Of a stretch of DNA of 61,044 nucleotides, positions 1,888 to 57,127 are shown in pieces. This DNA is from Mycobacteriales bacterium (lineage in GTDB: Bacteria > Actinomycetota > Actinomycetes > Mycobacteriales > SCTD01): NCBI GenBank assembly GCA_046595615.1, contig JBKJOO010000041.1, positions 1-61,044 on the forward strand, read 5' to 3'. Below the pieces are notes generated by a model that made no database searches, was not told the origin of the DNA, and worked only from the letters and a program-made list of their open reading frames with translations. Every line of letters begins with the position of its first letter. Position 1 is the first letter of the stretch. A program made the position numbers and the translations under genes.

Positions 1888-1923
1888 GTGACAGCGTGTC
1901 GGTGGCCCACGTCAGGAGCACGC

Positions 1924-25922: not shown

Positions 25923-25930
25923 GAGGACTC

Positions 25931-36006: not shown

Positions 36007-36103
36007 GCCTAGCTAGGACAGCTAGGCCGCGTAACCCACCCACACATACGTCAGGAGAGCCGGAAAACAGCGTCAGTGGATACGGGCTCAGAGTGGCTCG
36101 CTC

Positions 36104-36313: not shown

Positions 36314-36333
36314 CGTGCGGCACCGGAGCCCTC
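36293..36333 (-). terminator. stem-loop ending the long minus-strand operon
   Basis: 12-bp perfect stem gagggctccggt / accggagccctc, immediately 3' of the WXG100 gene. Confidence 0.6.
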
Positions 36334-36338
36334 GACCG

Positions 36339-36611
36339 TCAGTGCGAGGAGACCTCGCGCTGCGCGGTCGCGTTGTTTAGCGCTGCCTGCCCGAGCCCGT
36401 CGATGGCGTGCATCGCCGTGGTCAGGGCGGGCTTGTGCTGGCTGGTCCACCAGCCGTGGAACTCGTGCGCGTCATTGCCGTCCCAGACCGAGATCGCCTG
36501 CTGGACGAGGCTGTCGATCTGCGAGATGAGGCCTTGCAGGTTGTGTGACTGAGACTTCAGTCCCCGGCCGACGGACTCGACCTCGTCGACATCCATTCCC
36601 AAGCGAGCCAT
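36339..36611 (-). CDS. WXG100 family (EsxA/EsxB-like) protein, 90 aa
   Basis: ~90 aa helical protein with a central W-D-G (VWDGNDA). Homologous to the N-terminal domain of the adjacent lipase protein. Confidence 0.8.
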   Translation of the reverse strand: MARLGMDVDEVESVGRGLKSQSHNLQGLISQIDSLVQQAISVWDGNDAHEFHGWWTSQHKPALTTAMHAIDGLGQAALNNATAQREVSSH

Positions 36612-36687
36612 GTGGAGTCCTTCCCGATGTTTCCTGATGACCCGCTGCGGGTCTGTCGTCCCATCCTGGCAACGCTCGGGCCAGACG

Positions 36688-37802
36688 TCATGACCCCTGT
36701 TCGGGGGACGCGATGGCCTGCTTCTCGAGCTCGCGCTCGATCGAGTTGAGGCTGTGGTCGGGACCCACTACGGACGCACCGACCCAGTCTTGGCGCCCCA
36801 ATGACCCTGGCACGGCGTCGAGGAGAGCCGCTGCGCCGCTCACGATCGACGGGGGACCGAATCCTGGTAGGGGCATCTGACGCTGCACCTCCGCCAACTT
36901 CTGGAGCAGGGTAAGCGGGTCGCTCTCGAGTGAGACGTTCACGATGTCCCCCTCCGCCTGGGACCTTGCCCTACTGAAGTCGCCCGTGACGTACGGCAGC
37001 AAGCTCACGTACTGCCCCTTGGCCCCCAGCGCGACCGCGAGCTCGCTGTTGCTAACCCCCGCTGCGTCGAACGTCACCGCCGGGCAACCTGTCGCAACAG
37101 AAGACACGGCCGCGAGGCGGCCGCCGAGGGAGTGCCCGGTGAAGGACACATGATCGGCACCTACGCTCTGCACAAGACCTTTGGCCAGCGTCACCGCCTC
37201 CTCAGTCTGCGTGGAGACATAGATTCCCCCGACCACGTCAGCGCCGACATCGGGGTTACCCAGCAGCCGAAGAAGAGCTTTCCGCTAGCCACACCCTGCG
37301 TGCCCGCGTAGCTGATGACGTAGTGCCCGGCGTCGTCGACGTAGATCCTTGCCTCGAAGCCCAACCGGGGGTCTTTTGTGGTGAGGCCCAGACGACGGAT
37401 CTCGTCATCGTCGAGACGATGGTAGCCGTCCACATCCGCCTGATCCCCGCGGGCGAGCGAGAGCATGTCACGGACAGGGGCCACCCGGGGCGTGGACGGC
37501 ACATTCTTCCTCCCCTTCGCGGACGACGCCCGCGAAGGGGACGAGACAGCGCGTTGCTCGTCGGCGTTCTTGCGGGCTGCACCGCTCAGCTGCACGACGT
37601 CGGCGGCTACGGTCGCGAGAATGGGCCTCGCTTGGTGCCAAGCTCGCGTCTGCTGCTCGGCGTCAGCACCCTCCCACAGCCCGCCACCGCGCACGATCCC
37701 GACGTCGACCGCGGCGATCAGGGCCTTGAGTCGCGATCCGGCAGCGCTGGGGGCATCAGCGATCGCGGCGACCCGATCAACGTCCATCCCCTCGGACGAC
37801 AT
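36688..37802 (-). pseudogene. WXG100-domain / class-3-lipase-like (GHSLGG) T7SS effector, split by a frame switch near nt ~37230-37260
   Basis: ORF 37191..37802 has N-terminal GMDVDRV...LWEGADA...NADEQRAVSS (WXG100-like), then ..GHYVISYAGTQG. ORF 36688..37236 continues GNPDVGADVVGGIYV...FTGHSLGGRLAA. TAG in the second frame lies just upstream of the junction. Confidence 0.65.
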
Positions 37803-37817
37803 GAGTTCCTTTCGATC

Positions 37818-40800
37818 TCAGGGGATTGCGATCTGGACGAGCTCGTGACGGCCCGACCGCACGAGATAGCCGCGCCCAGGCGGGAAGTCGCTGCGCCGAG
37901 TCCGGAACGGAAGCCTGGCGCCGAGCTGGTCCTGTCCGTCGCCGGCCTCGGGCTGCAGAAGAACGCCAACACGACTGGCGTTGAGCTGGGCCAAGAGCCC
38001 GTGCCGCCGGTACTGCCCGATCTCACCTTCGGACACGACGAGGCCGTTGCCCCGCACCAACAGCTTGACGAGGTCGGTCAGCGACTGCTCCGCCGGGCTC
38101 ATATCCCACTCCGCGACGTCCTCGACGACGAGTGTCACCTCGACGTCTACGCCCTCCGTGACGAGTTGCGTCAGCTCTCCGTCCAGGCGGAGCGCGAGGT
38201 CAATCGCCTCGTCGACGCCGACAGCCACCTCTGTCCAGCCCTCTGTGCGCGCGAGGGCCGAGCGACGGTGGGCAGTCACGAGGTAGCGCCGCAGCCTGGG
38301 GCGGACCCGGAGTGCGGCAAGGACGACCGCCTCGGCGGCTTCCGCACGCCCTGAACCCGGCGGACCCGCGACGAGGAAGGTCCCGGCCGGCGAGATCGCC
38401 ACCGGTCCCAGGGTCTCGGCGGAGAGGCCGATGGCCGCCTGGCCCCCCACGCTCGCCGGCAGCTGGCCAAGGCGCACGACCTGCGCCAACGCATGAACAG
38501 GCACCGCCTGGGGCCCAGCGATCTGGCCGAGATGTTTTGAGAGGTGGGAGACCTCCTCGGCCTGACTGGCGAGGTCGCTCCCGCCCAGCACGGCCACCTG
38601 CACCTCACGCCGGTCCCACACGCCTCGTCCCGCCGGCGACGACGAGCTCAGTAGGTCGGGCGGCACGTCGAGGCTGCGGTACTCCTCGGCGTCCGGCATC
38701 CTCAGCACGAGCGACTGCTGGACGGTCGCCGCGAGCTGAAACGGGATACCCGAGCCTCGGTCGGTGGTGGCGATCACGTGGACGCCGTAGGCTCTCCCGG
38801 ACGTGGCGACGCGGACCAGACCCGCCCATGTGCCGCCGCTGGCGTCGTTCTCGTAGGCCGAGTAGAACGCCCCGATCCCGTCGATCATCAGCAGCATGCG
38901 GGGCTCATGCGGCTCACCGGCACCCTCCCGGTACTCGCCCAGAGAGCTGGCCTCTACCTGCGCGTACCGAGTGGCGCGCTCCTCGACCACGACATCGAGC
39001 CAGTCGACGAGGCGGCGCACGCGCTCGTCCTCCGAGCCCGCGATCACTGCACCGACATGCGGCAGCTTCTCGAGCAAGGTGAGGCCACGGGCCGCGAAGT
39101 CCAAGGCGTAGACATGGCAAGGCGCCTCACCGAAGGTCAGCCCCGCCGCCACCGCGATGGTGCGCAAGAACGTGCTCTTCCCACTCCCGCTCGCCCCGTA
39201 GACCGCGAGATTCCCCAGCTCGGGGTCGTAGGCGACGGGCCGCTGCTCCTGGGCGCCCGGATCGTCCAGCAGGCCGAAGATGAGCCGGCGGTCGCTCCCC
39301 GACATTGGCAGGTCGGCGCGCAGGTGAACGTGGTCCGCGAGGGCCGGCAACCACGGCTTGCGCGGCGTCGGAAGGACGGCCAGCCGGTGTGCCTGCGTGA
39401 TGCGAGCGACGACCTTCACCAGGTCTGTCGGCCCGCTCTGCTCGTCGTTGAGCTGCTCGGTCTGCGGCAGCTCCCAGACCACACCGGGATCCACCTTGAG
39501 CTCGGCGACGGCGATGTCCGGTTGCACGGGCCCCTGACCGGACCGTCCGCCGACGTACGCCGTCTGGAAGGGCACGAGCCGACCCGCGCCGCTCTTGCTC
39601 ATCGCCCGTCCTGGAACGTCCTGGTCGAAGAACGCGGCGTCGGGGGTCCCGAGCACGTCTGTCGAGTCGCTCTCGTCGGCGACCCTGAGAGCCACGCGTA
39701 GGTTCGTGTTGGCGCGCAGGTTGTCCTTGATCACCCCGGCCGGACGCTGGGTGGCGAGGACGAGGTGCAACCCGAGCGAGCGCCCACGCTGGGCGACGTT
39801 GACCACGCCCTCGACGAACTCAGGCACCTCCTGCACCAGGGCGGCGAACTCGTCGACGACGATGACCAGGCTCGGAGGCGCCTGGGGGTCTCCGGACCGT
39901 TCGAGGGTGATGAGATCTTTGGCCTTACCCCGCTCGCGCAGCAGCCTTTCCCGATAGGTCAGCTCGGCGCGTAGCGAGTCCAAGGCTCGACGTACCCCGT
40001 GCGGGTCGAGGTCCGTGACCAGCCCCACGGTGTGGGGGAGCTCGGCGCACTCGGCGAATGCCGAGCCTCCCTTGTAGTCAATGAGCAAGAAGGTGAGCCG
40101 CTGCGGGCTGTGGCTTGCGGCCATCGACAGGATCCAGGTCTGCAGCAGCTCGGACTTGCCCGATCCCGTCGTGCCGCCGACCAGGGCGTGAGGCCCGTCG
40201 GCGCGCAGGTCGACAGTAAGCAGCTCGGCCCCCCGCATGCCGATGGCGGCCCGCAGCGAACCCGCACGCCGGGCCGGCTCCGCCGGTGCCATCGGCCCGG
40301 TGAGCAGCGACTGCGACTGCAGCCACCGCTCGACGACCGGCTCCGGCCCGTCGGCGAGCTGCTCGTGGCCCGCCATAGCGAGGAAGGGGACGCTGCGGGG
40401 CAGGTCAGTGGCGTCCTCGGCGAGCGCCCCGAGGTCGGTGACGGGCGAGAGCGATCGCGCCACAGCCAGGGCGACCTCCGCCGAGACGGTGTCGAGCTCG
40501 ACCGGGGTCGTCACCTCGCGCTGGCCGACGTACCCCACGCTCCCGGTGGTGAGGGACTCGACGACCGTGAAGGTGCGGCACGCGGCCGGGAGCTGGTCGA
40601 GGTCGGGGGCCAGCCAGAGGACGTGAACCCCACGCCTCCACCCGTGCTCGGCGAGCTCCGACAGCCGAGCGAAGTCGGCCGGGCAGTCCCCTTCCACGAG
40701 CACGGTGATGGAGTGCGCGGGTCGAGCCGCTTGCGCGGCGTCGGCCGCCTCGGTGCGCTCCCCGACGAGGGTCTCCAGCTCGGAGAGCAGGGCAGCGCAG

Positions 40801-42212
40801 GAGGCCGGACTGGACGCCAACGGGAAACGCGCGAAGGGCGAGTACACCGAGCCCACGTGCGGCAGCCACTTGACCCAGTCCCAGTCGGCCGCAGTGCGGG
40901 TCGAGGCGAGGACGGCGATGCTCAGCACCCCGGGCGTGTGCAGGGTGGCCTCCTGGAGCAGCAGCGCGCGCATGTGCGCGAGGGCCGCCGACCGGGCCCC
41001 TGCCACGCCGACCGCGCCATCCTTCTCGAGACGGGCGACGACGGGAACCCCGTGGACCACAGCGAGCGGGAGCAGGACGGCGAGCGTCTCGGATGCCAGT
41101 TCCCGTGGGGCGCGCTTGAGCTCTGGTGGCTTCACCGTCGTGCGCGAGGCGGCGGAACCGAGGCCCAGCCGCAGCTCGAGGTGACCCAGCTCGCCCGGAC
41201 GACGGCTCCACAGCAGCGCGCCACGCGCTCGGGCGGCCTGCGCCGCCTCGACGGCCGCTGGGTGCTCGAGCAGGCGGACAGCGACCTCGTCGACGTGGGC
41301 GGCCTCGACCTGGCTACGCAACCCCTCAAGGTCGTCGCGATACGACGCCAGGGACTGCTTTCCCAGCCGACCCGCCTGACGTCGCTGCTCGATCGCGCTG
41401 CCCGCGAGCATGAGCGGGCTGAGCCCGGCCAGGAGCAGTGACGCCGGGTTCTTCGTCGTCCAGTACAGGACGCCGGCCATGAGCAGGGGCGCGAAGAGCA
41501 TCACCCAGGGGAACGGAGCGCGGCGCTGACGCTCCGGCACGTCGGGCGCCTCGAACGAGAGGCCTTCGCAGTACGGGGGCACCACGGGCTGTCGGATGAA
41601 GCCGACCGAGCCGGAGTCGATCCGGCCGGCCGTCTCGGGTGCGTGAAGCAAGCGGATGGACAGCACGGTGTCACCGAGCCGCACGCGGTCGCTCGCTCTC
41701 AGCGAGGCGCGTGTGGTCTGGACGTCGTTGATCTCCAGGCCATTGGCCGACCCGAGATCGATGACTTCGACCTCGGAGGTGACGTTGATCCGGGCGTGCT
41801 GTCGCGACACCAGAGGGTCGTCGAGGAGTACCTCGCAGCCGGCGAGACGCCCCACCACGTTGGCGCCGCTGCCGAGGGGGTACTCGCGACCCCGATCCGG
41901 GCCGTCCACCACCGTGGCGGTCGCCACTGCGTCGCGCTCGCCGGGGCGATAGGCCTGGCTGGCCGGTAGGAGCGAGATCCGGGCGCCTGAGCGCAGCGGG
42001 CTGTCGGCGAGAGCCGTTCGCGGGTCGAGGTGGCGAGGTGCGTCGGAGATGAGCGCCACCGTCAGCGGCCCGGAAGCAGGGGTGGAGCGGCGGCCGGGGT
42101 CGACCGCCGCGAGGCGGTCCGCCAGGGCTCCGACGGTGCAGGTCGCGTCCGTGGTCACCTCGACATCCACGGGTGACCCGCCAGACCGTTCGAGAGTCAG
42201 CTTGATCCTCAC
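37818..42212 (-). CDS. FHA-domain EccC/EssC-like triple FtsK/SpoIIIE ATPase (1464 aa)
   Basis: N-terminal beta-grasp-like segment. FHA (VVGRLAGCEVLLDDPLVSRQHARI..DLGSANGLEINDV, ~41700-41860). TM helices. P-loops GGTTGSGKSE, GASGSGKST and degenerate GPPGSGRAE. Confidence 0.85.
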   Translation of the reverse strand: MRIKLTLERSGGSPVDVEVTTDATCTVGALADRLAAVDPGRRSTPASGPLTVALISDAPRHLDPRTALADSPLRSGARISLLPASQAYRPGERDAVATATVVDGPDRGREYPLGSGANVVGRLAGCEVLLDDPLVSRQHARINVTSEVEVIDLGSANGLEINDVQTTRASLRASDRVRLGDTVLSIRLLHAPETAGRIDSGSVGFIRQPVVPPYCEGLSFEAPDVPERQRRAPFPWVMLFAPLLMAGVLYWTTKNPASLLLAGLSPLMLAGSAIEQRRQAGRLGKQSLASYRDDLEGLRSQVEAAHVDEVAVRLLEHPAAVEAAQAARARGALLWSRRPGELGHLELRLGLGSAASRTTVKPPELKRAPRELASETLAVLLPLAVVHGVPVVARLEKDGAVGVAGARSAALAHMRALLLQEATLHTPGVLSIAVLASTRTAADWDWVKWLPHVGSVYSPFARFPLASSPASCAALLSELETLVGERTEAADAAQAARPAHSITVLVEGDCPADFARLSELAEHGWRRGVHVLWLAPDLDQLPAACRTFTVVESLTTGSVGYVGQREVTTPVELDTVSAEVALAVARSLSPVTDLGALAEDATDLPRSVPFLAMAGHEQLADGPEPVVERWLQSQSLLTGPMAPAEPARRAGSLRAAIGMRGAELLTVDLRADGPHALVGGTTGSGKSELLQTWILSMAASHSPQRLTFLLIDYKGGSAFAECAELPHTVGLVTDLDPHGVRRALDSLRAELTYRERLLRERGKAKDLITLERSGDPQAPPSLVIVVDEFAALVQEVPEFVEGVVNVAQRGRSLGLHLVLATQRPAGVIKDNLRANTNLRVALRVADESDSTDVLGTPDAAFFDQDVPGRAMSKSGAGRLVPFQTAYVGGRSGQGPVQPDIAVAELKVDPGVVWELPQTEQLNDEQSGPTDLVKVVARITQAHRLAVLPTPRKPWLPALADHVHLRADLPMSGSDRRLIFGLLDDPGAQEQRPVAYDPELGNLAVYGASGSGKSTFLRTIAVAAGLTFGEAPCHVYALDFAARGLTLLEKLPHVGAVIAGSEDERVRRLVDWLDVVVEERATRYAQVEASSLGEYREGAGEPHEPRMLLMIDGIGAFYSAYENDASGGTWAGLVRVATSGRAYGVHVIATTDRGSGIPFQLAATVQQSLVLRMPDAEEYRSLDVPPDLLSSSSPAGRGVWDRREVQVAVLGGSDLASQAEEVSHLSKHLGQIAGPQAVPVHALAQVVRLGQLPASVGGQAAIGLSAETLGPVAISPAGTFLVAGPPGSGRAEAAEAVVLAALRVRPRLRRYLVTAHRRSALARTEGWTEVAVGVDEAIDLALRLDGELTQLVTEGVDVEVTLVVEDVAEWDMSPAEQSLTDLVKLLVRGNGLVVSEGEIGQYRRHGLLAQLNASRVGVLLQPEAGDGQDQLGARLPFRTRRSDFPPGRGYLVRSGRHELVQIAIP

Positions 42213-44578
42213 GGGGTCACCTCACGACGCCGGGTCCATGGCGTCGCTCGCCGAGCGCGAGCCGGGGATAGCTGCTCGACCGGACGTCGATCCCGGGCGA
42301 GCAACCCACGCAACGACAGGGGAGCAGCCACTCGGCGGACCCGGCCGGTGGCCTTGGCGAGCGACCGACCGGCGGCGCGCGTCTGCTGCCAGTACGACGA
42401 CACCTCGTCCTCGCTGGGCTGTCCCCATCCGAACACGGCGGCGTCGGCTTCCTGCGCGAGGCGGTGGCCACCTACTACATCGGCCTGCTGCTGGCGGGTG
42501 AGGCCGGCAGGCACGTCGTACCCGAGGTCGCGGGCCCGATCGACGTAGTCGCGCCACCCCTGCGCCAACCGTCTGGCAGGAGCACCGCGGCGGCGGCGAC
42601 GCCGTCGCCTGACCCCGCGGATGGCGGCGAGCACGACCCCGGCAGTGAGCAGCAACAGCGGGAGGACGAGAGCGTAGAGCAGCCAGACCGGTGGCGCCCA
42701 GGCGACGTTGGGTCGGTCGCTGGTCGTCCGGCTTGAGGCGCCGTGCGTGTCCGAGGTGGCCTCCAGGGCTCCGGGTGGCCGCTGCGCGTTCGGTGGGGGG
42801 ACGACCGCCGCGTTCTCGTCGACGTTGGGCGGCGGTGGCTGTTGCGTGGCGTGCTTGTCTCGATCGGGGGTGAAGATCGAGTACGGCATGGCGTACCAGC
42901 CTCCGTCGGTTGCTTGCAGCTCAACCCACGCATGGACGTCCTGACCTCTCACAGCTCCACCCGCCGGCATCTCGGCGCCCAGCACCACGCGGGCCGGAAC
43001 TCCGAGGTAGCTGGCCGCCAGGGCGAACGTCGCAGCGTACTGCTCGTCATTGCCGACCAGCTGCTGTCCCGCCACGAAGCGGGTCAGGCGTCCGACCCCA
43101 TGACCGGGAAGGTACTGCGTCTCCCCAGAGGCAGTGCCGTCGGTGTAAGCGCCGGAGCTGCGCATGAAGGCGGCTACTGCCTGGAGCTGCGCCCACGTCG
43201 TCGGCTTCTTGGCCACCCATTTCTGGATCTGTGGGGCGAGGAAGGCGAAGGTGGTGGGGTCCACCTGACTCCCGCCGGCGAGGTCCAGTTGGCGGGGGGC
43301 AACTGGCACCGACCGTCCCTGCAGGCTAACGACGTCGCCCGACTGGAGCCGTCCAGGGGCCACCGCCTGGCTCGTCGAGGGGTCATAGCGCAGCGTGTCG
43401 CCAAGGGTCGACCGATCGGCATGGGTGACCTGCAGATCCTCCAGCGCTCCAACGCCCGGCACCCAGACGTCGAGGTCGGACACGCCCGCGAAGGCCGGCT
43501 CGATAGTCATCGACACGTTGACGGGGGGACCCGAGTTGGTCGCCAGACTGGGGTCGATCTGTCGACCCACCTTGCGGAAGGCGGTCGTCGTCAGGTCGGA
43601 CGGGTTACCCGCCCCCCACGCGGTGCCGGAGTAGCGAGTCAGGACGGCGAAGCGCACCAACCCCCCTGGTGGTAGCCCCTGCACCTGCAACAGCTTCTGG
43701 TCCCAGAGCAGCTTGACACCCTTGGTGTACCGGCGAAACCCGACGAGTGGCGAGGGGTACTGGGTGATGTCGAACGGGGGTTGGACGTAGGTGCGCAGGA
43801 TTTGGCGGGCACCGGTCGATGGCATCAGCGGGTCGCCGAGGGCGAACGCCCCGGCGGCGGCCCCGGCGATGAGTAGGACCGCAACCACGCGACGGCCCAC
43901 CAGGCCCGCGCCCGATGCGATGAGATGCACCGAGCGCTCGCGGCGCGCCACCGCCCAGAGGAAAGCCACGAGCGCGAAGCCGAGTCCCTGGACGAGAACC
44001 GCTGCTGGCGTAAGCGTGCCGAGTGCCACTACCGCCACCGCCAGTCCTGCCGGTACGGGTAGCGGGGCCCAGGCTCGGGCTGTCCATCGGGCGAGGGCGA
44101 AGCCCGCCGCCCCGGTGAGCAGACCCAAGAGGTAGGGCAACACGAGGAGCTGCCCGGCGCCGTCCACCGGGGGGAGTGTGGTCAGCATCTCCTTCCACCC
44201 CGACACGGCAGTCTGTGCGAGCACGGCGAGCACGCCTCGGGTGGGGAGGACGCTGGCGAGCGCATCTCCGCGGACCGCGACCGCCCCACCTAGGAGAAAG
44301 TAGACGGCGGCACTCATCAGCGCGAGGACGAGCCACGGGCGTCGTACGCGCGTTGCGAGGTGGGCGACCGCGAGACCCAGGAGGAGGCCCGCCGACCCGA
44401 CGGCGAGGAAGCGCCAGTCGTCGAAGGTCGTTCGGAATCCTAAGAGCGCGATGACCCCGAGGAGGAGCAGGTAGCCCCCGTCGACGAGGTCGTGACGGTC
44501 GGGGCGGGCGGTCAGCGCGGCAAGCGGGCGGGTCGCCGAACCCCCCGCTCGTGCGGGGGCTGAGGCTGCGGCGCTCAC
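42209..44578 (-). CDS. TgpA-like transglutaminase-fold membrane protein (DUF3488 + TGase core + DUF4129-like tail)
   Basis: Multi-TM N-terminus. Core ..QLVGNDEQYAATFALAASYLGVPARVV..DVHAWVE... C-terminal TM + RRRRRRR + helical tail. 4-nt overlaps on both sides. Confidence 0.75.
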   Translation of the reverse strand: MSAAASAPARAGGSATRPLAALTARPDRHDLVDGGYLLLLGVIALLGFRTTFDDWRFLAVGSAGLLLGLAVAHLATRVRRPWLVLALMSAAVYFLLGGAVAVRGDALASVLPTRGVLAVLAQTAVSGWKEMLTTLPPVDGAGQLLVLPYLLGLLTGAAGFALARWTARAWAPLPVPAGLAVAVVALGTLTPAAVLVQGLGFALVAFLWAVARRERSVHLIASGAGLVGRRVVAVLLIAGAAAGAFALGDPLMPSTGARQILRTYVQPPFDITQYPSPLVGFRRYTKGVKLLWDQKLLQVQGLPPGGLVRFAVLTRYSGTAWGAGNPSDLTTTAFRKVGRQIDPSLATNSGPPVNVSMTIEPAFAGVSDLDVWVPGVGALEDLQVTHADRSTLGDTLRYDPSTSQAVAPGRLQSGDVVSLQGRSVPVAPRQLDLAGGSQVDPTTFAFLAPQIQKWVAKKPTTWAQLQAVAAFMRSSGAYTDGTASGETQYLPGHGVGRLTRFVAGQQLVGNDEQYAATFALAASYLGVPARVVLGAEMPAGGAVRGQDVHAWVELQATDGGWYAMPYSIFTPDRDKHATQQPPPPNVDENAAVVPPPNAQRPPGALEATSDTHGASSRTTSDRPNVAWAPPVWLLYALVLPLLLLTAGVVLAAIRGVRRRRRRRRGAPARRLAQGWRDYVDRARDLGYDVPAGLTRQQQADVVGGHRLAQEADAAVFGWGQPSEDEVSSYWQQTRAAGRSLAKATGRVRRVAAPLSLRGLLARDRRPVEQLSPARARRATPWTRRREVTP

Positions 44579-45867: not shown

Positions 45868-45873
45868 GTCAGG

Positions 45874-49800: not shown

Positions 49801-52800
49801 TGCGCCTGGGGCGATCATCCGCAGCGGCCCGGTCGCCGACTCCAGGCGAGCGCCGGCGGGGAGCGCGGCATTGGTCTGCGCCAGTGGTCGGATATTCACG
49901 TCGTCGTCGGCGCTCGTCAGGTCGTTTTCCATCGGGTCGATTGTCACGGTGGCCCCCGGGGCCGCCGTGACCGTGTCGGGCACGGAAATCGGCAGCTGCG
50001 GCGCACCCGGCTCGGTGACAGCGATCCGGATCGTCGACGTCGCTGATAGGCCGAAGCGGTCTGTGACGACGTAGTCGACGGAGTCGGTCCCCGACGACGT
50101 CGGGTATGCCTGATAGGTCAGCGAGGTCGGGGAATAGCCCGTTACCCGTCCGAGCTGGCTGGCCGAGCCGACGCCCACGACGGTCGTCGAGTCACCGTCG
50201 GGGTCAGTCCCGCTGGAGGGGATCGGCACCACCACCGTGTCGCCGGCCACGACCCTCGCCTCGAGCGGGTGGGGCGTGGGCGCTTGGTCCGGCCGCGTCG
50301 CCGACGGCGGTGGCAACACGGTGACCTGCACTTGTCCCGTGGCACGCTCACCAGCATCCGTCTGTGCCACGTAAGTGACGAGGATCGTGCGGCTTTGCGC
50401 GGCCGCAGCCGGGGCGACATAGCGCACCTGCTTGCCCACGACGTAAGCCGTCCCGACATCCTTGGACGTCGGTTGGGCGGGATCCAGCACCGGAAGCATG
50501 CCGGCCGCGGGAGCCCCCTCGACATCAGGCAGCAGGCTGAGGGCGGAGCCGCCGACGGTGGAGTCGTTGTCGAGTACCGGCACCAGCACGGAGTCACCGG
50601 CCCGCACTGTTGCGGAGTCCTGCTGCACCACGGGCGGATCGGGCGACACCACCGGAAGCTGGCTGACCGAGACGTCTCCGGTGACGGGCGACCCGACGCC
50701 GTTCGTCAGTGTGTAGTGGACGACTTGCGGGGTCGGGTGGAGGGTGGCAGTGGTTGGCACGATCCGCAGCCAGCGTCCCTTGACCACCGCCACACTCAGC
50801 TGTTGCGGCTGCTCGGCGGTCGCGGACAGCACGGTGAGCATCCCACCGGCGGGGTCGACGTCGTTGGCGACGGCATCGACGGTCGTCGGAGTGGCGCCGT
50901 GCACGGTCGCCTGGTCCGGCATGGCGATCGGGGGCCGCGGCGACGTCGGGCGCGGGACGACGTTGACCCGGATCTGGCCCGTTGCCAATGGTGCTGCCCC
51001 AAAGGCGACGTTGTAGCTGAGGAAGTAGGGGCCTGGTGCCTTCGCTGTCACTGCCAGCTGGCCTGTGGCCAGGTCGGTGGTCACCGTGGTGCCGGGGGGG
51101 GACGCCACGGGCGAGGCCAGCGCCATCTGGGTCGAGGTGTTCGTCGGGTCGGCGCCCGGCAGGTCGTTTTGCAGCGGGCTGACGATGATGCTCGACCCCG
51201 CGTCGCCGCTCGCGACATCGGGCTCGGTGCGGGCCTGGACTCCCGTCGTCGCCGACGCGGCGAGGACCGACACGGTCACGGATGCCGCAGTGGGCTTGGG
51301 GGCGATCCCGTCGGTCACGGTGTAGTCGACCTGTTGCGGGCCGCCCGGGCTCTGCGGAGGAGACGTGTAGGAGACGGTGCCGTCGGCCGCCGCCAGGGCC
51401 ACCCCCGCCTTCGCCGACACGTCGGCCAGCGACACCGGGTCACCGTCGTAGTCACGCCAGTCGGTGAGTAGCGGCATCGACACCCGGGCGCCGGAAGCCA
51501 CCGAGTACGACGGTGCTCTCGAACCGAGAGGGCGCAGGGCGGGTGGGGCGTTCTGGCCTGGCAGTCGGCTCTCCACCGTGACCCGTCCCGAGTCCGTGCC
51601 CCCCTCGGTGCCGTTGTCGATCGTGTAGCTGAAGCTTCCGCTCGGGGCGCCGCTGGGCAGGTGGTAGAGCAGAGTCTGGCCGTCCGGTGACGGCGACACG
51701 CTGGCTCCGTTGTTGGGCTGGGTCACCGAGCTGATCGACAGGATGCGACCCGAGGGGTCGGTGTCGTTGTCGAGCACGTGAAGGACGGTAGTGCGCCCGG
51801 GCCGCGCCCCGAGCTTGTCGTCCGTTGCGGTGGGCTTCTTCTTCCGATCACGTGTCGCCTGGGTGGTGGGGTTCTGATTGTGCTGTGGCTGTTGCGGGGG
51901 CTGCACCTGCTTCCACTGGTCGACGCTGCGCCGTAGGTCGAGGTCGAAGACCCTGCCGTCCGCCTCGTCGTTGAGGACGAAGCTGGCTCGGTTGACCCGG
52001 AAGACCGGCTTCACGAGGGCGCCCTGGCGGTCCAGAGGTATGCGGGTCGCCGTACCGCCTGGGCAGACGGAGACCAGGGTGGCCGAGGTGCCTGCCCACA
52101 CCTCATAGGCACAGCCGGCCACGCGAATGGGCTGCGCTGGCGACCCGAGCGGAGCAGAGTAGAGCGAGGACACTGCCCCTGACCCGTCGAGACGGATCGA
52201 GATGAGGCCGGCCCGTGACCCGAGCAGGACGGAGTCCGCGTCCCCCGAAGGCTGCTGCAGCACAGCCCCCTCGACACCTGGCGGCAGGGCAATGACTGGG
52301 CCGCCGTCCACGGCGACCTTGCCGGCAGTGGGGTCGAGCGCGACGACGTGCGACCCCACGGCTGTGAGCGACACCTGGGCCCACGACGAGGCGGTGCCCC
52401 TGACTGGTGGGGCCAAGCGCGAGCCAGAGGGCGAAATCGTCACGCTGTGCCCGGTGGCGTCAAGGGCATGCACGACGCCGTCGGCGCCGACGACGAGCGC
52501 ACTGGACGGTGCCCGGCCCGCGGGCTGGGGCGAGAGCATTGCCAATGGCTTGGCGTCCAGGCCCAGTCCGTCGAGCCCGATGATGGGAGCCGCGGCGTCG
52601 TACCGTGTCGCCCAGATCTTGCCCGATGCGCGGTCGAGCACTGCGAGCGTGCCGCCGCGTAGGTCGACCACAGCGTCGGCTCCGATGGCTTTGGCCTGGT
52701 CGACGATGGGCGTCCCCGACCGCACGTCGACCGGAACGACTTTTCCACCCGACTCGTCTCGCGCCAGCACCGAGCTCGCATCCTGGAGCACGTCGAGCTG

Positions 52801-53121
52801 GTATGTCGCCTGTGCTCCCCCGGGAGGGTTGAAGACCGCGTCGAGCGCGGCCGCAGACTTGTTGAGACGACCGAACACGCCTTGCAGGTTGTTGGTCACC
52901 CAAATGCCGGCATCGTTGAGATCGACCTTGCGCCCGGGGTAGCCCGACGAGGCGACGGCGAAGGCCGTGAGGGATCCGGCGGCTAGCGCGAGGAGCACGA
53001 TGACGCTAGTCACGCGAATCCGTTTGCCCACCAGCGAATGAGCCCCTCGCCACCCCGTCACGTTGAGCACTCTAGGCAGGTGTGGCCACCCGGCGAAGGG
53101 GCTCGAGGCAGTTGTCACCAA
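46864..53121 (-). CDS. giant membrane-anchored Ig-like/FN3/cadherin-like repeat surface protein (2085 aa)
   Basis: N-terminal signal anchor (IRVTSVIVLLALAAGSLTAFAVA). Long Thr/Val/Pro/Gly-rich beta-repeat body with VLDNDTDPDGD-type and FN3-like modules. Poly-Pro linker + Cys-containing C-terminal domain. Alternative start GTG 53031. Confidence 0.8.
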   Translation of the reverse strand: MVTTASSPFAGWPHLPRVLNVTGWRGAHSLVGKRIRVTSVIVLLALAAGSLTAFAVASSGYPGRKVDLNDAGIWVTNNLQGVFGRLNKSAAALDAVFNPPGGAQATYQLDVLQDASSVLARDESGGKVVPVDVRSGTPIVDQAKAIGADAVVDLRGGTLAVLDRASGKIWATRYDAAAPIIGLDGLGLDAKPLAMLSPQPAGRAPSSALVVGADGVVHALDATGHSVTISPSGSRLAPPVRGTASSWAQVSLTAVGSHVVALDPTAGKVAVDGGPVIALPPGVEGAVLQQPSGDADSVLLGSRAGLISIRLDGSGAVSSLYSAPLGSPAQPIRVAGCAYEVWAGTSATLVSVCPGGTATRIPLDRQGALVKPVFRVNRASFVLNDEADGRVFDLDLRRSVDQWKQVQPPQQPQHNQNPTTQATRDRKKKPTATDDKLGARPGRTTVLHVLDNDTDPSGRILSISSVTQPNNGASVSPSPDGQTLLYHLPSGAPSGSFSYTIDNGTEGGTDSGRVTVESRLPGQNAPPALRPLGSRAPSYSVASGARVSMPLLTDWRDYDGDPVSLADVSAKAGVALAAADGTVSYTSPPQSPGGPQQVDYTVTDGIAPKPTAASVTVSVLAASATTGVQARTEPDVASGDAGSSIIVSPLQNDLPGADPTNTSTQMALASPVASPPGTTVTTDLATGQLAVTAKAPGPYFLSYNVAFGAAPLATGQIRVNVVPRPTSPRPPIAMPDQATVHGATPTTVDAVANDVDPAGGMLTVLSATAEQPQQLSVAVVKGRWLRIVPTTATLHPTPQVVHYTLTNGVGSPVTGDVSVSQLPVVSPDPPVVQQDSATVRAGDSVLVPVLDNDSTVGGSALSLLPDVEGAPAAGMLPVLDPAQPTSKDVGTAYVVGKQVRYVAPAAAAQSRTILVTYVAQTDAGERATGQVQVTVLPPPSATRPDQAPTPHPLEARVVAGDTVVVPIPSSGTDPDGDSTTVVGVGSASQLGRVTGYSPTSLTYQAYPTSSGTDSVDYVVTDRFGLSATSTIRIAVTEPGAPQLPISVPDTVTAAPGATVTIDPMENDLTSADDDVNIRPLAQTNAALPAGARLESATGPLRMIAPGAGERPAVLSYGLSGNAGNGPLTTVTVRSQDGINLPPRVFSESAQPTGAPTVTTDVLKRAYDPDGDTTALRISQVADPAATVTGGAITVAVADHAQAIPFQVTDSGGAVSSAVLYVPAVGADLPYAVPGKSITVDQGKSATVSLADYVVSPKRKPLSLTTQDRLWAAPAGMVTLTSPAKGRLQVTAHGSYVGPAAITFEVTDGTSLTDPKAHTVLVTVPVQVGPVTPVLHCPTDVIAVVEGGAPWTFDPGSLCHVWMPDPSQVAALTYTTTWTKSAGDVRVEGSPGRRLSVVAGSSAKPGATAGFSLTATGTRATPATMTVRVVAAPPPTISPITLQEVKQGQSAQVDVHSYMTSPLATPSYTVVSARHTSGMPGTITSNGSVLSVTPGPTSHGPMSFLVTASDVGDKTRSDRQVTTTLSLSVFGVPDAPSAPQGQTALLSHSAVLSWRTGAANGAPIDSFEVRGSGASRTCQASPCTITGLPNGSPITFMVRAHNKAGWSAWSPSSGGVTPNAKPQAVTGLTASDPQDHSMQLRWNAAVVDGSPVTKYVVTWVGGSTTTAATSVRASGLDNNAPNTFAVVPYNAAGAGPAAATKGQSSGVPLAPTGITVAGIATADGSAAAVRVSWGAVVANGPGPTTYGVRRNDGKVICSGVTATSCTDDGVAYDGTTYTYVVSAANATPGHAGPPATSGAYQSIGNPASWGGWAASATGVDRQVHVTATVPPSRGASATVTLLDGTAVVNTWAVSPGGGPLDQMASFENGTTHTLTLKVCNEKDRCGSTATSQTVTPFGPIPTPGVSLSKDGPTTFQVHVDANGNGRVITVHVTTDSGHAWDKTTTGPAHWDLGGYGVGYNQRDQAHVTIIDSAKRPVPGQVDSNAQTADPPPPPPATVTVYHGRVETTVVTCPPTCLHVGVTTANFTSNVSCTVTSTAGGGFVGFTQGANQTKDSPNVVQSGYRFSVTVTCTDGQGHSANGTFNNW

Positions 53122-53151
53122 AAGGGAGGACAGCCTCTGGGGGACTCCCCC

Positions 53152-54792
53152 TCAGGAAGCACAGCCGGGCGACGACCACTGCCGGCTTGCGTCTGCGCCG
53201 CTAGCGCGCACGACGATGACCTGAACGCACGTGCGCCGACCCGCCGACACCCGCGGAACCGTGACCTTCGTCGACGACGTCACTCCAGAGGGTGCGCCGC
53301 CCACCACCTGCCAGCGAAAAGTGTCTGACGAGAGGGCGGCCGAGTAGTCCCAGGAGAAGACGAGGTCGGCTCCGACACGTCGACCCTGCACGGTCACTGG
53401 CCCGGGGGGAATGACATCCTGTGCCACGCCGGTGGTCACCACCACCTGAGGAGGCGCAGGTGGTGGTGCAGCTTCGTCTCGCGTGATGAGGAGCACGGCG
53501 CCGCTCACGGCCACGGCGACCGCGCCGACGGCGCCAGCGAGCAGCATCCCGCGTCGACGGCCAGCCACAGGGTCGGGCCCATGGGGCAGCTCGACCTCGC
53601 GGGTGCGAGGGCGCTTCGCCGTCGGTGTCCCTGGCGCCCCGCCGGGCGACCGCCCAGCCGGCATGGTTGTGTGGGCCTGAGCCGTCCCCGGGCGCAGCAT
53701 GGTCGGAGACTGAACGCCCGGTTCGCCCTGGGGTGCCACTCGTTCGCTGGCCGATCGCGCGGAGACACGCGCCGGGGGGAGCACCGTCGGAGGTGCTCCA
53801 CCCTGACCGGGAATGGGTGGCGGCGGTGCAAGCGATGACGCCCGCGCAGGGGCCAGACGCGTGGCATGGCTTGGGCCAGCGTCGGCCGCGGATCCTGTCG
53901 TTCCGGAGCCGGCCGCTATCCCTGAGTCAAGAAGTCGCGGTAGGCGCGCGTCCCTCTCGTGGGTGCCCGGCAGCCCCAGCTCTCTCTCGACCGACTGCAA
54001 GCTGGCGATGACCGACCGCATCGACGCCGGACGTTGAGATGGCTCCTTGGCCATCGTTGCCCGTAAGAGGTGGTCAAGGCCCACCGGAACGCCGGGTATG
54101 CCGGTAGGGGGTGCCTGGAGGCTCAGCATCCGCTTGAGAAGCTCGGCCTCGGAGTTGTCCCGGCCCGGGGTGACGAAGGGGGAACGGCCGACAAGGAGGT
54201 GCCATAGCGTCGCCCCGAACGAGTAGATGTCCGAGCGAACCGAGCCCATGTCCTGGTGGAAGAGCATCTCTGGGGCAGCCCACTCCAACGAAACCCCGAC
54301 CGAGTCCGGATCCTCGACGTCCACGCTCGAGGCCGCGATCCCGAAGTCGGTGAGGCGCGGCGCTGCGTTCGCGTCGAGGAGGATGTTGGCTGGCTTGACA
54401 TCGCGATGCCTGAGATCACGTTGATGCGCGTGCTCGAGGGCCGACCCGACGCCGATACCCACAGCGAGGACCTCTGCGACCGTCAAGGGTCGGAGGGCGA
54501 TCAGTCTCTCGAGCGACCCGAGGGCGCAGTACTCCATCGACAGGCACGGCCGCCCGTCCTCCGTCCGGCGCACGCCCCATATCCGCACAATGTGGGGGTG
54601 ATCGAGGCCTGACATGCGTACGGCCTCGGACTCGAACCTCGCCATCTCGTCGGCCCCACCACCGACTCGGGGAACCTTGATCGCCACGTCGCGCTGCAGG
54701 GTGAGGTCGCGGTAGAGATACACATCCCCGAAACCGCCGCCGTCACTGAGCAGACGCAGATGCCGGTGGTCCGGCAGTCGAGGAGCCGTCAT
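53152..54792 (-). CDS. Hanks-type Ser/Thr protein kinase with TM and extracytoplasmic domain
   Basis: GGGFGDVY, VAIKV, HRDVKPANILL, DFGIA. TM LLAGAVGAVAVAVSGAVLLI. C-terminal beta-rich domain. Confidence 0.85.
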   Translation of the reverse strand: MTAPRLPDHRHLRLLSDGGGFGDVYLYRDLTLQRDVAIKVPRVGGGADEMARFESEAVRMSGLDHPHIVRIWGVRRTEDGRPCLSMEYCALGSLERLIALRPLTVAEVLAVGIGVGSALEHAHQRDLRHRDVKPANILLDANAAPRLTDFGIAASSVDVEDPDSVGVSLEWAAPEMLFHQDMGSVRSDIYSFGATLWHLLVGRSPFVTPGRDNSEAELLKRMLSLQAPPTGIPGVPVGLDHLLRATMAKEPSQRPASMRSVIASLQSVERELGLPGTHERDARLPRLLDSGIAAGSGTTGSAADAGPSHATRLAPARASSLAPPPPIPGQGGAPPTVLPPARVSARSASERVAPQGEPGVQSPTMLRPGTAQAHTTMPAGRSPGGAPGTPTAKRPRTREVELPHGPDPVAGRRRGMLLAGAVGAVAVAVSGAVLLITRDEAAPPPAPPQVVVTTGVAQDVIPPGPVTVQGRRVGADLVFSWDYSAALSSDTFRWQVVGGAPSGVTSSTKVTVPRVSAGRRTCVQVIVVRASGADASRQWSSPGCAS

Positions 54793-56333
54793 GCGCCGAA
54801 CGGCTCGACGTGCAGCTCGACGACCCCCGCGAGGACGATCACGCTTCCTGGTTGCACCGCGACGGGCTGGTGAGGTACCAGCTGCTGCCGTCGACCGTTT
54901 CGATGCACGATGTCCGTCCCGTTGCTGGAGCCGAGATCGGTCGCGAGAATGTGCCAGTCGTCCAGCACCAGCGACAGATGGGTGCGCGAGATGGCGCTTC
55001 CCTCGGGGTGGCCCTCGGGATCCGAGATGGTCACAAGCTTGGGGGGCCGACCGGACATCGATGCGGCGGAGCCCGGCTCCCTGCCCAAGATGATGTCGCG
55101 GTCAAGGAGGACCGGGCTCTGCCCCGGAATAGGGATCCGGGCCAGCGGGGGTCGCTCGACCGTCGTCACGGCCGAGGACTCGACAGGAGCACCACACACG
55201 CGACACTGCGGATCTGTGGGTGCGCTCAGATGACCCCGTGGGCAGGTGATCGCTGCGACAAACGTCGTGCCCAACGGCGTCGGGGACATCGGCAGCTGGC
55301 TCCGAAGTCGAGTACGACCGGCCTCGGTGAGATCGAATCCGGAACGGGGTGGGGCGGGGTCGTTCCTCACCTCGGACGAGGGCACTCGTGACGTGGGCAT
55401 CGGTCGCGAGGGCTGTTGGTCTGCGGGAATTGACGCCTCGCGCTTGGCATCATCGGGACGCTGCCATCCGAGGCTGACACCCGGCACATGGTCGATCAAG
55501 GTAGGAGTTCCCGAAGATGGGCCCCCAGCCCTTGGCCCCAGCTCCAGGGACCGCACTTCAGGCCACACGGACTCGATGGACCGCGGATGCTCGACCTGCC
55601 CGACGACCTCGACGACCTCGACTGGCTGGACTTTCTCCGTGGATGGGACCAACTGCGAAGTCGAACCAGTCGCGCCCGTCGTGAAGGCGCCAGTCGCCGC
55701 GACCGGCTGCTCTTTGGTCCATCCCGAGATGAGCGTCCTCGCAGCTGACCGGTCGGGCTGCTCGCCGACTTCAACGGGGTCGTCCTCGGCGGTGCGAACA
55801 GCCTGAGGGGTGACGGCTTCAGTGGGGCCTGAGTGCCCGTCGGACCGCGAGGGCCTGACAAGCGCGTCCGGCGTCGGCGCGGCGAGCATCACGACCAGAC
55901 CCTTCGTCCATACCACCCCGAGGTCGCAGGGCCAGCAGTCCGCCGGGTCGATTGCCAACCGCTCGGAGGAAAAGGCGATGACGACGCGCCCGGGCGGGAC
56001 GTCGTGCTCGGCGTAGGGCTCCCCGCCCGCCAGGTCCCCCGATGGGGTCCGCGCCACGAGTGGGCCGGCGAGCAAGAGGCGGCCGCCGGCGCCGCCTCTC
56101 TCGAGGAGTGCGAACGGGAGGGAGCCCCTTGCGGGCGCCAGCAGCGAGAGCGCGTCGTCAACCGTCCCGTCGGGGATGAGGCGCTCACTGAGCGCCAGCA
56201 AGAGCGGGGCAGGAACATCGCCGGGCAGCATGACGGCCAGTCTCCGGTTGAGCAAAGCGACTCCGTCACCTCGCGTATACCGCCACAAGTAGGTAAAGGC
56301 GTTGGCCTCCGTGCTTGGGCCTTCGTCGCTCAT
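54789..56333 (-). CDS. FHA domain protein with zinc-ribbon
   Basis: C-terminal FHA (ILGREPG...ISRTHLSLVL..DLGSSNGTDIV). CPRGH..x9..CRVCG. 4-nt overlaps with the kinase and phosphatase genes. Confidence 0.8.
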   Translation of the reverse strand: MSDEGPSTEANAFTYLWRYTRGDGVALLNRRLAVMLPGDVPAPLLLALSERLIPDGTVDDALSLLAPARGSLPFALLERGGAGGRLLLAGPLVARTPSGDLAGGEPYAEHDVPPGRVVIAFSSERLAIDPADCWPCDLGVVWTKGLVVMLAAPTPDALVRPSRSDGHSGPTEAVTPQAVRTAEDDPVEVGEQPDRSAARTLISGWTKEQPVAATGAFTTGATGSTSQLVPSTEKVQPVEVVEVVGQVEHPRSIESVWPEVRSLELGPRAGGPSSGTPTLIDHVPGVSLGWQRPDDAKREASIPADQQPSRPMPTSRVPSSEVRNDPAPPRSGFDLTEAGRTRLRSQLPMSPTPLGTTFVAAITCPRGHLSAPTDPQCRVCGAPVESSAVTTVERPPLARIPIPGQSPVLLDRDIILGREPGSAASMSGRPPKLVTISDPEGHPEGSAISRTHLSLVLDDWHILATDLGSSNGTDIVHRNGRRQQLVPHQPVAVQPGSVIVLAGVVELHVEPFGA

Positions 56334-57127
56334 GTGGTCCGCTGGTTCATGAGACTCGACCGCGGGATCGTCGTCGCTGAAGATTCTCGGTGAGCTGCAG
56401 GCTCTGGCCCACCTGTCGGCACCACCAGGACGACGGTGATGTTGTCCTCTCCTCCGTGCTCCTCGGCGAGGACCACTAGCCGTCGTGCCTTCTCGTCCAA
56501 AGAGCTCGGTTCGTCCAGCACGTGCGCGATGAGCTCGTCAGAGAGCGAGGACGTCAGGCCGTCGCTAGCCAGCAGGAACAGGTCCGACTCGGAAGGGGAC
56601 AGTCGGCGAAGGTCCACGGTGGCAGGGGGCGCTTGGCCCAGTGCCCGCGTGATGACGTGACGGGAGGGATGAACCTCGGCTTCTGCGGGGGTGATCGCCC
56701 CTGCAGCAACCAGCTCCTGGACCTCCGAGTGGTCTGTGGTCAGACGTTCGAGCAGGTCAGCGCGCCATCGGTAGGCCCGAGAGTCACCGACATGGAAGAC
56801 GACCCAGCTCCCCCCCTCATCGACCGTCCGAGCCAGCCCGACAATGGTGCTGCCCAGACCCGTCGCCTCAGGATGGCGCTCCCCATGCTCAAGAATGGCG
56901 GCGTTGACGCGGTGGAGACAGTGCAGAAGGACGTCCGTGGTGATGCGCATCTCCCCATCGAGGGCGGTCAGGAACTCAATGGCCAGGCGGCTCGCCACAT
57001 CGCCTGCAGCGTGGCCTCCCATCCCGTCGGCGACGGCAAAGATCCGGGAGCCCGCGAGGAAGGCGTCCTCGTTCAGGAGCCGCACTCGGCCCACGCTCGT
57101 AGCCCCGGCCACCATCACTGCCACCAC
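56330..57127 (-). CDS. PP2C-family Ser/Thr phosphatase
   Basis: NEDAF, FAVADGMGGHAAGDVAS, ASDGL, GGEDNITVV motifs. Confidence 0.85.
   Translation of the reverse strand: MVAVMVAGATSVGRVRLLNEDAFLAGSRIFAVADGMGGHAAGDVASRLAIEFLTALDGEMRITTDVLLHCLHRVNAAILEHGERHPEATGLGSTIVGLARTVDEGGSWVVFHVGDSRAYRWRADLLERLTTDHSEVQELVAAGAITPAEAEVHPSRHVITRALGQAPPATVDLRRLSPSESDLFLLASDGLTSSLSDELIAHVLDEPSSLDEKARRLVVLAEEHGGEDNITVVLVVPTGGPEPAAHRESSATTIPRSSLMNQRTT

Follow-up and report, generated by a model that had tools for sequence, protein, structure and literature searches.

Gene organization of the locus

The stretch analyzed here, referred to as the window, comprises 61,044 nucleotides (61 kb) of high-GC (~70%) DNA from a Mycobacteriales bacterium (assembly GCA_046595615.1, contig JBKJOO010000041.1), and the subject of this study is an operon that runs from 57127 to 36339 on its minus strand. 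The operon joins genes for a putative surface filament, a Ser/Thr kinase, a phosphatase, and FHA-domain proteins to genes for an ATPase and small proteins related to those of type VII secretion systems (T7SSs), and it probably encodes a surface-sensing phosphorelay with secretion as one of its outputs. Domains were assigned with Pfam and NCBIfam, and 31 open reading frames (ORFs) of the window were scanned with Pfam. The ten genes are co-directional, with spacings of -4 to +76 nt calculated from their coordinates. They are listed below in the order of transcription, together with one domain and the stem-loop that follows the last gene; names in parentheses refer to the Esr pathway of Schaalia odontolytica, with which the operon is compared later.

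56330-57127 (-): PP2C Ser/Thr phosphatase (EsrF-like); Pfam PP2C_2, E 4e-11
54789-56333 (-): FHA output protein, 514 amino acids (aa) (EsrG-like); Pfam FHA at aa 445-501
53152-54792 (-): membrane Hanks Ser/Thr kinase (EsrE-like); Pfam Pkinase, E 1e-37
46864-53121 (-): immunoglobulin-like (Ig)/FN3 surface filament, 2085 aa (EsrA-like); Pfam Big_9 (six copies), Cadherin_5, Cadherin_4, and fn3 (two copies)
51862-52956 (-): predicted beta-propeller domain of the Ig protein, aa 56-420; profile, AlphaFold2 (AF2) model, and Foldseek
45874-46863 (-): MoxR-type AAA+ ATPase; Pfam AAA_3, E 6e-61, and AAA_lid_2
44575-45867 (-): DUF58 membrane protein; Pfam DUF58, E 5e-7
42209-44578 (-): TgpA-like transglutaminase (TGase)-fold protein, polytopic (EsrD-like); Pfam Transglut_core, E 6.5e-12
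37818-42212 (-): FHA-EccC ATPase of the T7SS type, 1464 aa; Pfam FtsK_SpoIIIE and FHA
36688-37802 (-): gene for a WXG100-domain and lipase effector, frameshifted; two ORFs in different frames
36339-36611 (-): WXG100 protein, 90 aa; Pfam WXG100, 28.5 bits (cutoff 27.3)
36293-36333 (-): stem-loop 3' of the last gene, likely terminator; centroid -36.5 kcal/mol, z -4.75

The inverted repeat at 36293-36333 has a folding energy of -36.5 to -39.7 kcal/mol, and none of 200 shuffled sequences folded as well. It was missed by a consensus terminator scan because it has no U-tract, and folding confirmed the hairpin. Among the 31 window ORFs, no Pfam match was obtained for the EccB, EccD, EccE, MycP, EssA, EssB, or EsaA families. 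An earlier note on this DNA had described ten packed minus-strand genes with these domains, a terminator at this position, and an absence of EccB/D/E, MycP, and EssA/EsaA genes; the domain searches and coordinates bear out the first and the last of these claims, and the second holds in the form of a strong hairpin.

The FHA-EccC ATPase

The 1464-aa ATPase consists of a ubiquitin-like region (aa 1-85), an FHA domain (aa 97-190), two transmembrane (TM) helices (aa 232-274), a stalk, and three FtsK-like ATPase domains. Among the NCBIfam models, EssC gave the highest score (505, below its cutoff of 778), followed by EccCa (367, cutoff 509) and EccCb (300, cutoff 347). In a comparison with the PDB, the protein matched Thermomonospora curvata EccC with 242 bits, YukB and EccC5 with 193 bits each, and FtsK with 61 bits, and on these scores we assign it to the EccC/EssC family. 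The homologues bear the source name "DNA segregation ATPase FtsK/SpoIIIE", as would be expected if the protein were a DNA segregation or translocation ATPase unrelated to protein secretion. However, the gap between the EccC-family and FtsK scores, the three tandem ATPase domains with an EccC stalk region, and the strict co-occurrence with WXG100 genes described below make this explanation extremely improbable, and we rejected it. The Walker A and B motifs are intact in ATPase domain 1, and domains 2 and 3 are degenerate, as in EccC.

An AF2 model of aa 1-230, with a predicted local distance difference test (pLDDT) score of 85.6, contains a canonical FHA domain at aa 97-190 that superposes on GarA/OdhI with a root-mean-square deviation of 1.2-1.4 Å. 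Both Pfam and this model confirm the claim of the earlier note that the FtsK-type ATPase carries an N-terminal FHA domain. Residues R122, S136, H139, and N157, which occupy the canonical phosphothreonine (pThr)-binding motif positions of FHA domains, are invariant in 54 homologues. The preceding aa 1-85 are arranged as beta-beta-alpha-beta-beta (beta-grasp-like) in the model, and their profile matches a redesigned ubiquitin at E 0.007. When the N-terminal model was submitted to Foldseek, FHA matches dominated and the ubiquitin-like domain was not matched by itself. The ubiquitin-like label is accordingly a weak one, based on the order of strands and helix in the model and on a single weak profile match.

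WXG100 proteins and WXG-tagged effectors

The 90-aa protein encoded by the last gene belongs to a family of which 21 of 22 members match Pfam WXG100 at E ≤ 0.01. In the family alignment, W43 of the WxG motif is present in at least 90% of the sequences and G45 is invariant. The family profile matches Staphylococcus aureus EsxA at E 6e-12, better than it matches mycobacterial ESAT-6/CFP-10; EsxA proteins from S. aureus, Bacillus, and Streptococcus are its best matches, and EsxA/EsxB structures are also matched at E 6e-12. By motif and profile, the small downstream proteins are identified as true WXG100 members.

The gene between the ATPase and WXG100 genes is split into two ORFs that lie in different frames, namely 37191-37802, which encodes a WXG-like N-terminus, and 36688-37236, which encodes the lipase part with a GHSLGG nucleophile elbow and a weak match to Pfam Lipase_3. 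When both parts are aligned to an intact homologue of 343 aa (L007:20018-21046), the frameshift falls between 37266 and 37296. The best PDB match of the lipase is a type VI secretion system (T6SS) lipase effector (E 2e-4), and the N-terminal 88 aa encoded by the gene align with the WXG100 family across the whole domain. The WXG-lipase described by the earlier note is therefore present with both domains, but not as a single intact frame. In the closest relative, the metagenome-assembled genome (MAG) that contains locus L007, the WXG-lipase gene is intact and the EccC gene (L007:13605-17992) is broken into three frames, probably by long-read indel errors. These breaks call for caution with the window as well, in which the lipase frameshift may likewise be an assembly error.

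Many loci contain a WXG100 gene followed by genes for proteins with the same N-terminal domain and variable C-termini, often accompanied by a small downstream gene. Judged by gene order, this combination of WXG-tagged variable proteins and a small downstream gene is a toxin-cassette layout. In an alignment of WXG100 proteins and effector WXG domains (window positions 36339-36611 and 37539-37802, with 20 relatives), the sequences share the start M-A-x-x-G-M-D-V-D and the C-terminal tail N-A-x-x-Q-x-x-A-S-S. In this clade, the tail might serve as the export signal; the alignment showed no YxxxD/E motif.

Components of the putative surface sensor and phosphorelay

The Ig protein begins with a hydrophobic signal peptide/anchor segment (aa 36-59) followed by AVA-SS and has no C-terminal TM helix. 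No LPXTG motif was seen by eye in its C-terminal 385 aa, for which no pattern search was made. The region of aa 56-420 is conserved in 66 loci, and a profile built from 55 Ig-protein orthologues matches the PknD sensor domain and PknD-derived designed propellers at E 1e-7 to 1e-5. Homologue searches for the N-terminus gave 4 matches with the single sequence and 8 with a profile, so that the alignment available to AF2 was shallow; the model of aa 56-420 is still confident (predicted template modelling score 0.80, pLDDT 77). It is all-beta, and the top Foldseek matches are all beta-propellers. The predicted combination of a Sec signal, an N-terminal beta-propeller, and an Ig filament is the architecture of the EsrA sensor. 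In Knoellia/Janibacter-type loci devoid of EccC (L022, L023, L026, L027, L029-L031, and L057), the gene order differs from that of the window: a giant Ig/propeller homologue is encoded downstream of the TGase gene, at ~13.5-20 kb, and the genes for PP2C, the FHA protein, and the kinase lie upstream of MoxR.

The MoxR protein scores 29.4 bits on bpMoxR (cutoff 27), the model for the MoxR of MoxR-von Willebrand factor A (vWA)-beta-propeller systems. The DUF58 protein, which is above the Pfam cutoff, has two N-terminal TM helices (aa 43-61 and 74-92), is conserved in 80 fetched loci, and is assigned by its domain as the usual vWA-like partner of MoxR. The TGase-fold protein has 6-7 TM helices ahead of the TGase domain and one after it. 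When its G-N-D-E-Q-Y-A motif is aligned with G-x-C404-A-H-Y-A of TgpA, Asp replaces the catalytic Cys, and the triad Asp is also missing from the window protein. Among 78 aligned relatives, the Cys position is occupied by Asp in 71 and by G, E, A, or Q in 7, and the residue at the triad His position varies. Given that none of these relatives has the catalytic Cys, thiol-based covalent links would be unlikely in this clade. The motif G-[NDS]-D-E-Q-[YF]-A is nearly invariant across the TGase-fold proteins of the fetched loci, a degree of conservation that suggests some other function not based on a thiol. Anchoring of the Ig protein by the TGase-fold protein may be non-covalent here.

The kinase retains VAIK36, HRD129, DFG149, and APE173, in agreement with the earlier note, which had called it active because VAIK, HRD, and DFG were intact. 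It has a cytoplasmic kinase domain, a single TM helix (aa 418-436), and an outside domain of ~110 aa, a topology like that of EssB. The PP2C phosphatase scores 219 bits on NCBIfam Stp1_PP2C, slightly below the cutoff of 230, and its metal-binding motifs (DGMGGH, GDSR, SDGL, and GEDN) are kept. The 514-aa FHA protein is composed of a globular N-terminus, a long P/S/T-rich linker, a CxxxH...CxxC motif, and the C-terminal FHA domain. For its N-terminal 175 aa, no relative was found with Pfam or with BLAST/phmmer against 24 orthologues, and a search of 1.8 billion representatives returned only the protein itself and one odd repetitive match. The latter is P0130, a protein of 2966 aa that matches residues 2-60 of the FHA protein in 14 separate stretches, and may be a repeat or compositional artefact.

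Conservation and distribution of the operon

A search for homologues of the ATPase yielded 548 matches from many actinobacterial lineages, nearly all of which are 1450-1500 aa long and contain the FHA domain. The best non-self identity is 54%, and the closest relatives (50-54% identical) come from Nostocoides/Ornithinibacter/Micropruina-like MAGs. Eight homologues were looked up, which represent seven independent places ranging from Dactylosporangium to Acidiferrimicrobium (class Acidimicrobiia). At all seven places, genes for the giant Ig protein, MoxR, DUF58, TGase, and the ATPase occur in this order and are followed by a gene for a WXG100 protein of 88-93 aa, and the EccC gene overlaps the TGase stop codon by 4 nt. 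The flanks of the operon are not conserved among these relatives. The core module (Ig, MoxR, DUF58, TGase, EccC, and WXG100) is found in Acidimicrobiia and also in a Solirubrobacterales MAG (Thermoleophilia).

A genome scan seeded with DUF58 gave 80 loci, of which 60 were informative, that is, had at least 5 kb of sequence beyond the TGase gene. EccC was encoded within the locus in 17 of the 60, and four more loci from Arthrobacter/Paenarthrobacter have EccC after the PP2C-FHA-kinase block, giving a total of at least 21. In 39 of the 60 (~65%), the Ig-MoxR-DUF58-TGase-kinase set had neither EccC nor WXG100 within 10 kb, which implies that secretion would be only one of the outputs of the sensor module. 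The WXG100 profile matched only EccC-bearing loci, and it matched every such locus with downstream sequence. As far as gene content can tell, the linkage is one-way: the ATPase clade and WXG100 are always found in the operon, and the sensor operon is often found without them.

The earlier note had reasoned that a fortuitous juxtaposition would be indicated if most relatives of the operon were without the WXG100/EccC genes. Numerically, most are, but the strict one-way linkage speaks against chance. Judged by its recurrence in the same order in dozens of genomes, the arrangement is far beyond chance, and these comparisons support the view that EccC and WXG100 are a real, conserved part of the operon and not chance neighbours.

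Comparison with known systems

The closest described counterpart is the threat-sensing Esr pathway, short for epibiont sensing and response, defined in Schaalia odontolytica in a bioRxiv preprint of 9 September 2026 (Wang et al., PMC13622651). In that pathway, EsrA is a Sec-exported filament of Ig-like repeats with a beta-propeller tip, and its covalent linkage is proposed to be the task of the transglutaminase-like EsrD, whose deletion releases EsrA; a MoxR/vWA pair, the kinase EsrE, the phosphatase EsrF, and the FHA protein EsrG complete the set (PMC13622651). EsrG occurs in 13 different architectures, the type example having a pseudophosphatase at its N-terminus, and a threonine of its linker becomes phosphorylated upon contact with the epibiont (PMC13622651). 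The authors reported 3502 Esr pathways, 40% of which adjoin esx genes, with "numerous" EsrG-EccC fusions, and showed experimentally that the Esx-linked Esr2 controls the export of a subset of substrates post-translationally (PMC13622651). The linked Esr2 cluster of S. odontolytica is embedded in a full Esx cluster, and export of EsxA/EsxB is near wild type when esrA2 is deleted (PMC13622651). The work combines genetics with phosphoproteomics, provides direct defence data, describes many outputs besides secretion, and confines Esr to one class, Actinomycetes (PMC13622651).

By composition, the operon in the window resembles Esr in its parts list: an Ig filament with a propeller, MoxR, vWA/DUF58, a TGase-like protein, a kinase, PP2C, and an FHA protein with a linker. 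In addition, EccC/WXG100 genes are adjacent, an FHA domain is joined to EccC, and our figure of at least 21 of 60 informative loci with EccC agrees with the 40% Esx linkage in the preprint. The operon differs from Esr in that its neighbourhood in the window contains no T7SS genes besides those for EccC and the WXG proteins, that a separate EsrG-like protein is encoded beside FHA-EccC, that EccC also bears the ubiquitin-like domain, and that the TGase-fold protein has Asp at the catalytic Cys position. Furthermore, its effectors are WXG-tagged enzymes (a lipase) instead of AesA/AesB and have no GYVNP motif, and the module reaches Acidimicrobiia and Thermoleophilia, beyond the class to which the preprint confines Esr.

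The earlier note had proposed that the giant Ig protein and the MoxR/DUF58/TGase proteins could supply the envelope-spanning or assembly components missing from a minimal T7SS-like module, and that the kinase may take the place of EssB. The 4-nt overlap of the TGase stop and EccC start in every locus where the two genes are adjacent, the EssB-like topology of the kinase, and the catalytic degeneracy of the TGase-fold protein, which may therefore be structural, are consistent with this idea. However, a Sec signal with a distal beta-propeller is the design of a sensor or an adhesin and not of a channel, 39 of the 60 informative loci have the set but neither EccC nor WXG100, and EsxA/EsxB export hardly changed in the esrA2 deletion of S. 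odontolytica. We consider a structural role of the Ig, MoxR, DUF58, and TGase-fold proteins in a T7SS very improbable and, on account of the sensor design and the mostly EccC-less occurrence, rejected it.

The PFNA operon of Bifidobacterium comprises pkb2, fn3, aaa-atp, duf58, and tgm, together with prpC, a hypothetical gene, and fha (PMC8430577, PMC6803598). Pkb2 phosphorylates the MoxR ATPase (PMC8430577). The operon was read as a device for sensing host cytokines and called bifidobacterium-specific, and EccC/WXG100 were not described (PMC8430577, PMC6803598). By composition, it has the kinase, FN3/Ig, MoxR, DUF58, TGase-like, PP2C, and FHA components in one operon like the window, whereas the window order starts with PP2C and FHA, the carriers are environmental actinobacteria, and the output is secretion. 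The PFNA operon may be a pared-down form of this general threat-sensing system.

Two groups of T7SSs share features with the secretion genes. Like type VIIb (Ess) systems, the operon encodes an ATPase with an N-terminal FHA domain for which EssC is the best NCBIfam model, toxins with an N-terminal WXG/LXG-like helical domain, a ubiquitin-like module, and a membrane protein of the kinase fold (PMC9600267, bioRxiv 10.1101/2025.01.24.634720). In contrast to type VIIb, where the ATPase has two FHA domains and YukD is a protein of its own, the ATPase of the window combines a single FHA domain with a fused ubiquitin-like one. Furthermore, the kinase retains its catalytic motifs, unlike the pseudokinase EssB/YukC, and the window contains no EssA/EsaA. 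Like type VIIa (ESX) systems, it has an EccC-family ATPase with TM helices, a stalk, and three ATPase domains, the best solved relative of which is T. curvata EccC, and it has WXG100 substrates. In contrast to type VIIa, the locus is without EccB/D/E or MycP, the ATPase has the extra ubiquitin-like and FHA N-terminus and remains below the EccCa/EccCb cutoffs, and the WXG100 proteins of the window family match mycobacterial ESAT-6/CFP-10 weakly.

These features leave two ways in which the ATPase could operate. On the one hand, FHA-EccC and the WXG proteins might be an accessory ATPase and its substrates that plug into a canonical EccB/D/E/MycP complex encoded elsewhere. The window and the 10-kb surroundings at the seven places contain no other T7SS core family, as this explanation would predict, and the Esr2 cluster of S. 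odontolytica does lie inside a full Esx cluster. Conversely, the ATPase and WXG100 proteins are nearer to the Firmicute EssC/EsxA models than to actinobacterial EccC/ESAT-6, a poor fit with docking to EccB/D/E, and the clade has its own fused ubiquitin-like and FHA domains, so that we regard this explanation as possible but on the whole rather doubtful. On the other hand, ubiquitin-like-FHA-EccC, the membrane kinase, active by motif, and WXG100 might form a self-sufficient, stripped-down T7SSb-like machine in Actinomycetota, an idea that we put forward tentatively and hold to be unlikely. Such a machine may need none of EccB/D/E/MycP or EssA/EssB/EsaA; the fused ubiquitin-like domain may act in the role of YukD and the real kinase in that of EssB, and pThr gating may come from a surface sensor held by a catalytically dead TGase-fold anchor.

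The operon also resembles the MoxR-vWA-beta-propeller conflict systems (Kaur, Burroughs, Iyer, and Aravind, eLife 2020, PMC7159879) in its bpMoxR-passing MoxR, vWA-like partner, propeller sensor, and kinase/FHA parts, with the difference that the propeller is carried by a giant secreted Ig filament and not by the vWA protein. According to PMC13622651, clusters of the Esr type were not picked up in the survey of PMC7159879. PADLOC gave just generic kinase and FtsK-domain matches and nothing for MoxR/DUF58/TGase, and the cluster is not in the 2023 anti-phage catalogue.

Genomic neighbourhood

The operon is flanked by a tyrosine integrase and IS21 genes on one side and by an SbcCD-like pair, Wadjet, and other defence and mobile genes on the other. 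The integrase gene lies directly upstream of the PP2C gene, within a mobile-element segment at 57462-60796 (-) that also contains the IS21 pair IstA (59531-60796, -) and IstB (58722-59534, -). A second mobile-element segment is located at 22157-23011 (+), and the window contains an IS605 OrfB/TnpB-like gene. Directly downstream of the hairpin and on the same strand, 31098-36112 (-) encodes an SbcC-like AAA_27 protein (1184 aa) and a calcineurin-like phosphoesterase (486 aa); since this pair is not conserved beside the operon in relatives, it is probably a separate nuclease or defence pair. A complete Wadjet-type system, consisting of JetA (DUF3375), JetB (DUF4194), JetC (SMC-like, 1206 aa), and JetD, is encoded at 23129-30903 (+). 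Farther away are a 2392-aa protein with AAA_22 as its sole Pfam match, followed by a beta-CASP metallo-beta-lactamase nuclease (3549-13099, +), and a RES-domain toxin gene with an upstream partner ORF (1888-3470, +). The unconserved flanks and the defence and mobile surroundings fit a mobile, conflict-related module.

These surroundings bear on the possibility that the operon serves envelope homeostasis or development, with the sensor reporting on the cell's own wall or on within-species contact and the WXG proteins acting in development or kin interactions and not in defence. The ESX system of Streptomyces affects development, the operon is carried by free-living soil, sludge, and aquatic actinobacteria of many orders, and Esr has many outputs other than secretion, all of which would suit such a role. 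However, the variable C-termini of WXG-tagged proteins include a T6SS-effector-like lipase and a weak CHAP match, the small downstream genes resemble toxin-immunity cassettes, defence and mobile genes are abundant in the neighbourhood, and the Esr preprint contains direct defence data. A role of this kind is accordingly improbable.

Proposed function and implications

Taken together, we interpret the operon as an Esr-type (also PFNA-type) surface-sensing phosphorelay with a type VII-like secretion module as a built-in output, and we give this interpretation a probability of about 0.7. The propeller tip would detect an item on the cell surface, e.g., an attached competitor or epibiont, and the signal would reach the kinase by way of the TGase-like anchor and the MoxR/DUF58 pair. 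The targets of phosphorylation by the kinase would be threonines in the disordered FHA-protein linker and possibly also in linkers of the kinase itself or of EccC. The mark would be read by the invariant pThr pocket of the EccC FHA domain, licensing assembly or activity of the ATPase, which would export WXG100 and the WXG-tagged effectors, and PP2C would reset the switch. The suggestion of the earlier note that secretion is phospho-switchable is supported by the invariant motif residues of the EccC FHA domain, the retained catalytic motifs of the kinase and PP2C, the conserved linkage, and the Esr2 experiments (PMC13622651).

Several observations weigh against this interpretation. The match with Esr and PFNA is one of composition and architecture, and the steps of the mechanism are drawn largely by analogy with S. 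odontolytica. EccB/D/E, MycP, EssA/B, and EsaA are not encoded within 10 kb in the window or at the seven places, and EccC may be unable to work from the operon locus alone. About two-thirds of the informative loci have the sensor set without EccC or WXG100. The lipase effector is frameshifted, and the toxin may be non-functional unless the break is an assembly error. Neither the window nor any of the 88 loci contains the AesB motif GYVNP, and in the searches described above the N-terminal domain of the FHA protein showed no similarity to a pseudophosphatase or anything else. Given the composition of the TGase active site, it is doubtful that anchoring in this clade is covalent, as the preprint proposes for Esr.

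The kind of system to which the operon belongs had already been described in the Esr preprint, weeks before this analysis, and the window provides a new example. Its new aspects are the orphan ubiquitin-like-FHA-EccC clade, a dead transglutaminase, a broader phylogenetic range, and the connection with PFNA. That the TGase-fold protein has no catalytic Cys is of direct relevance to the anchoring mechanism put forward in the Esr preprint. The coupling of the sensor to a T7SS, reported for an oral Schaalia, appears from our comparisons to be a module that is deeply conserved, translationally coupled, and spread through Actinomycetota as far as Acidimicrobiia and Thermoleophilia, and the operon is a compact candidate for how phosphorylation switches on a T7SS ATPase.

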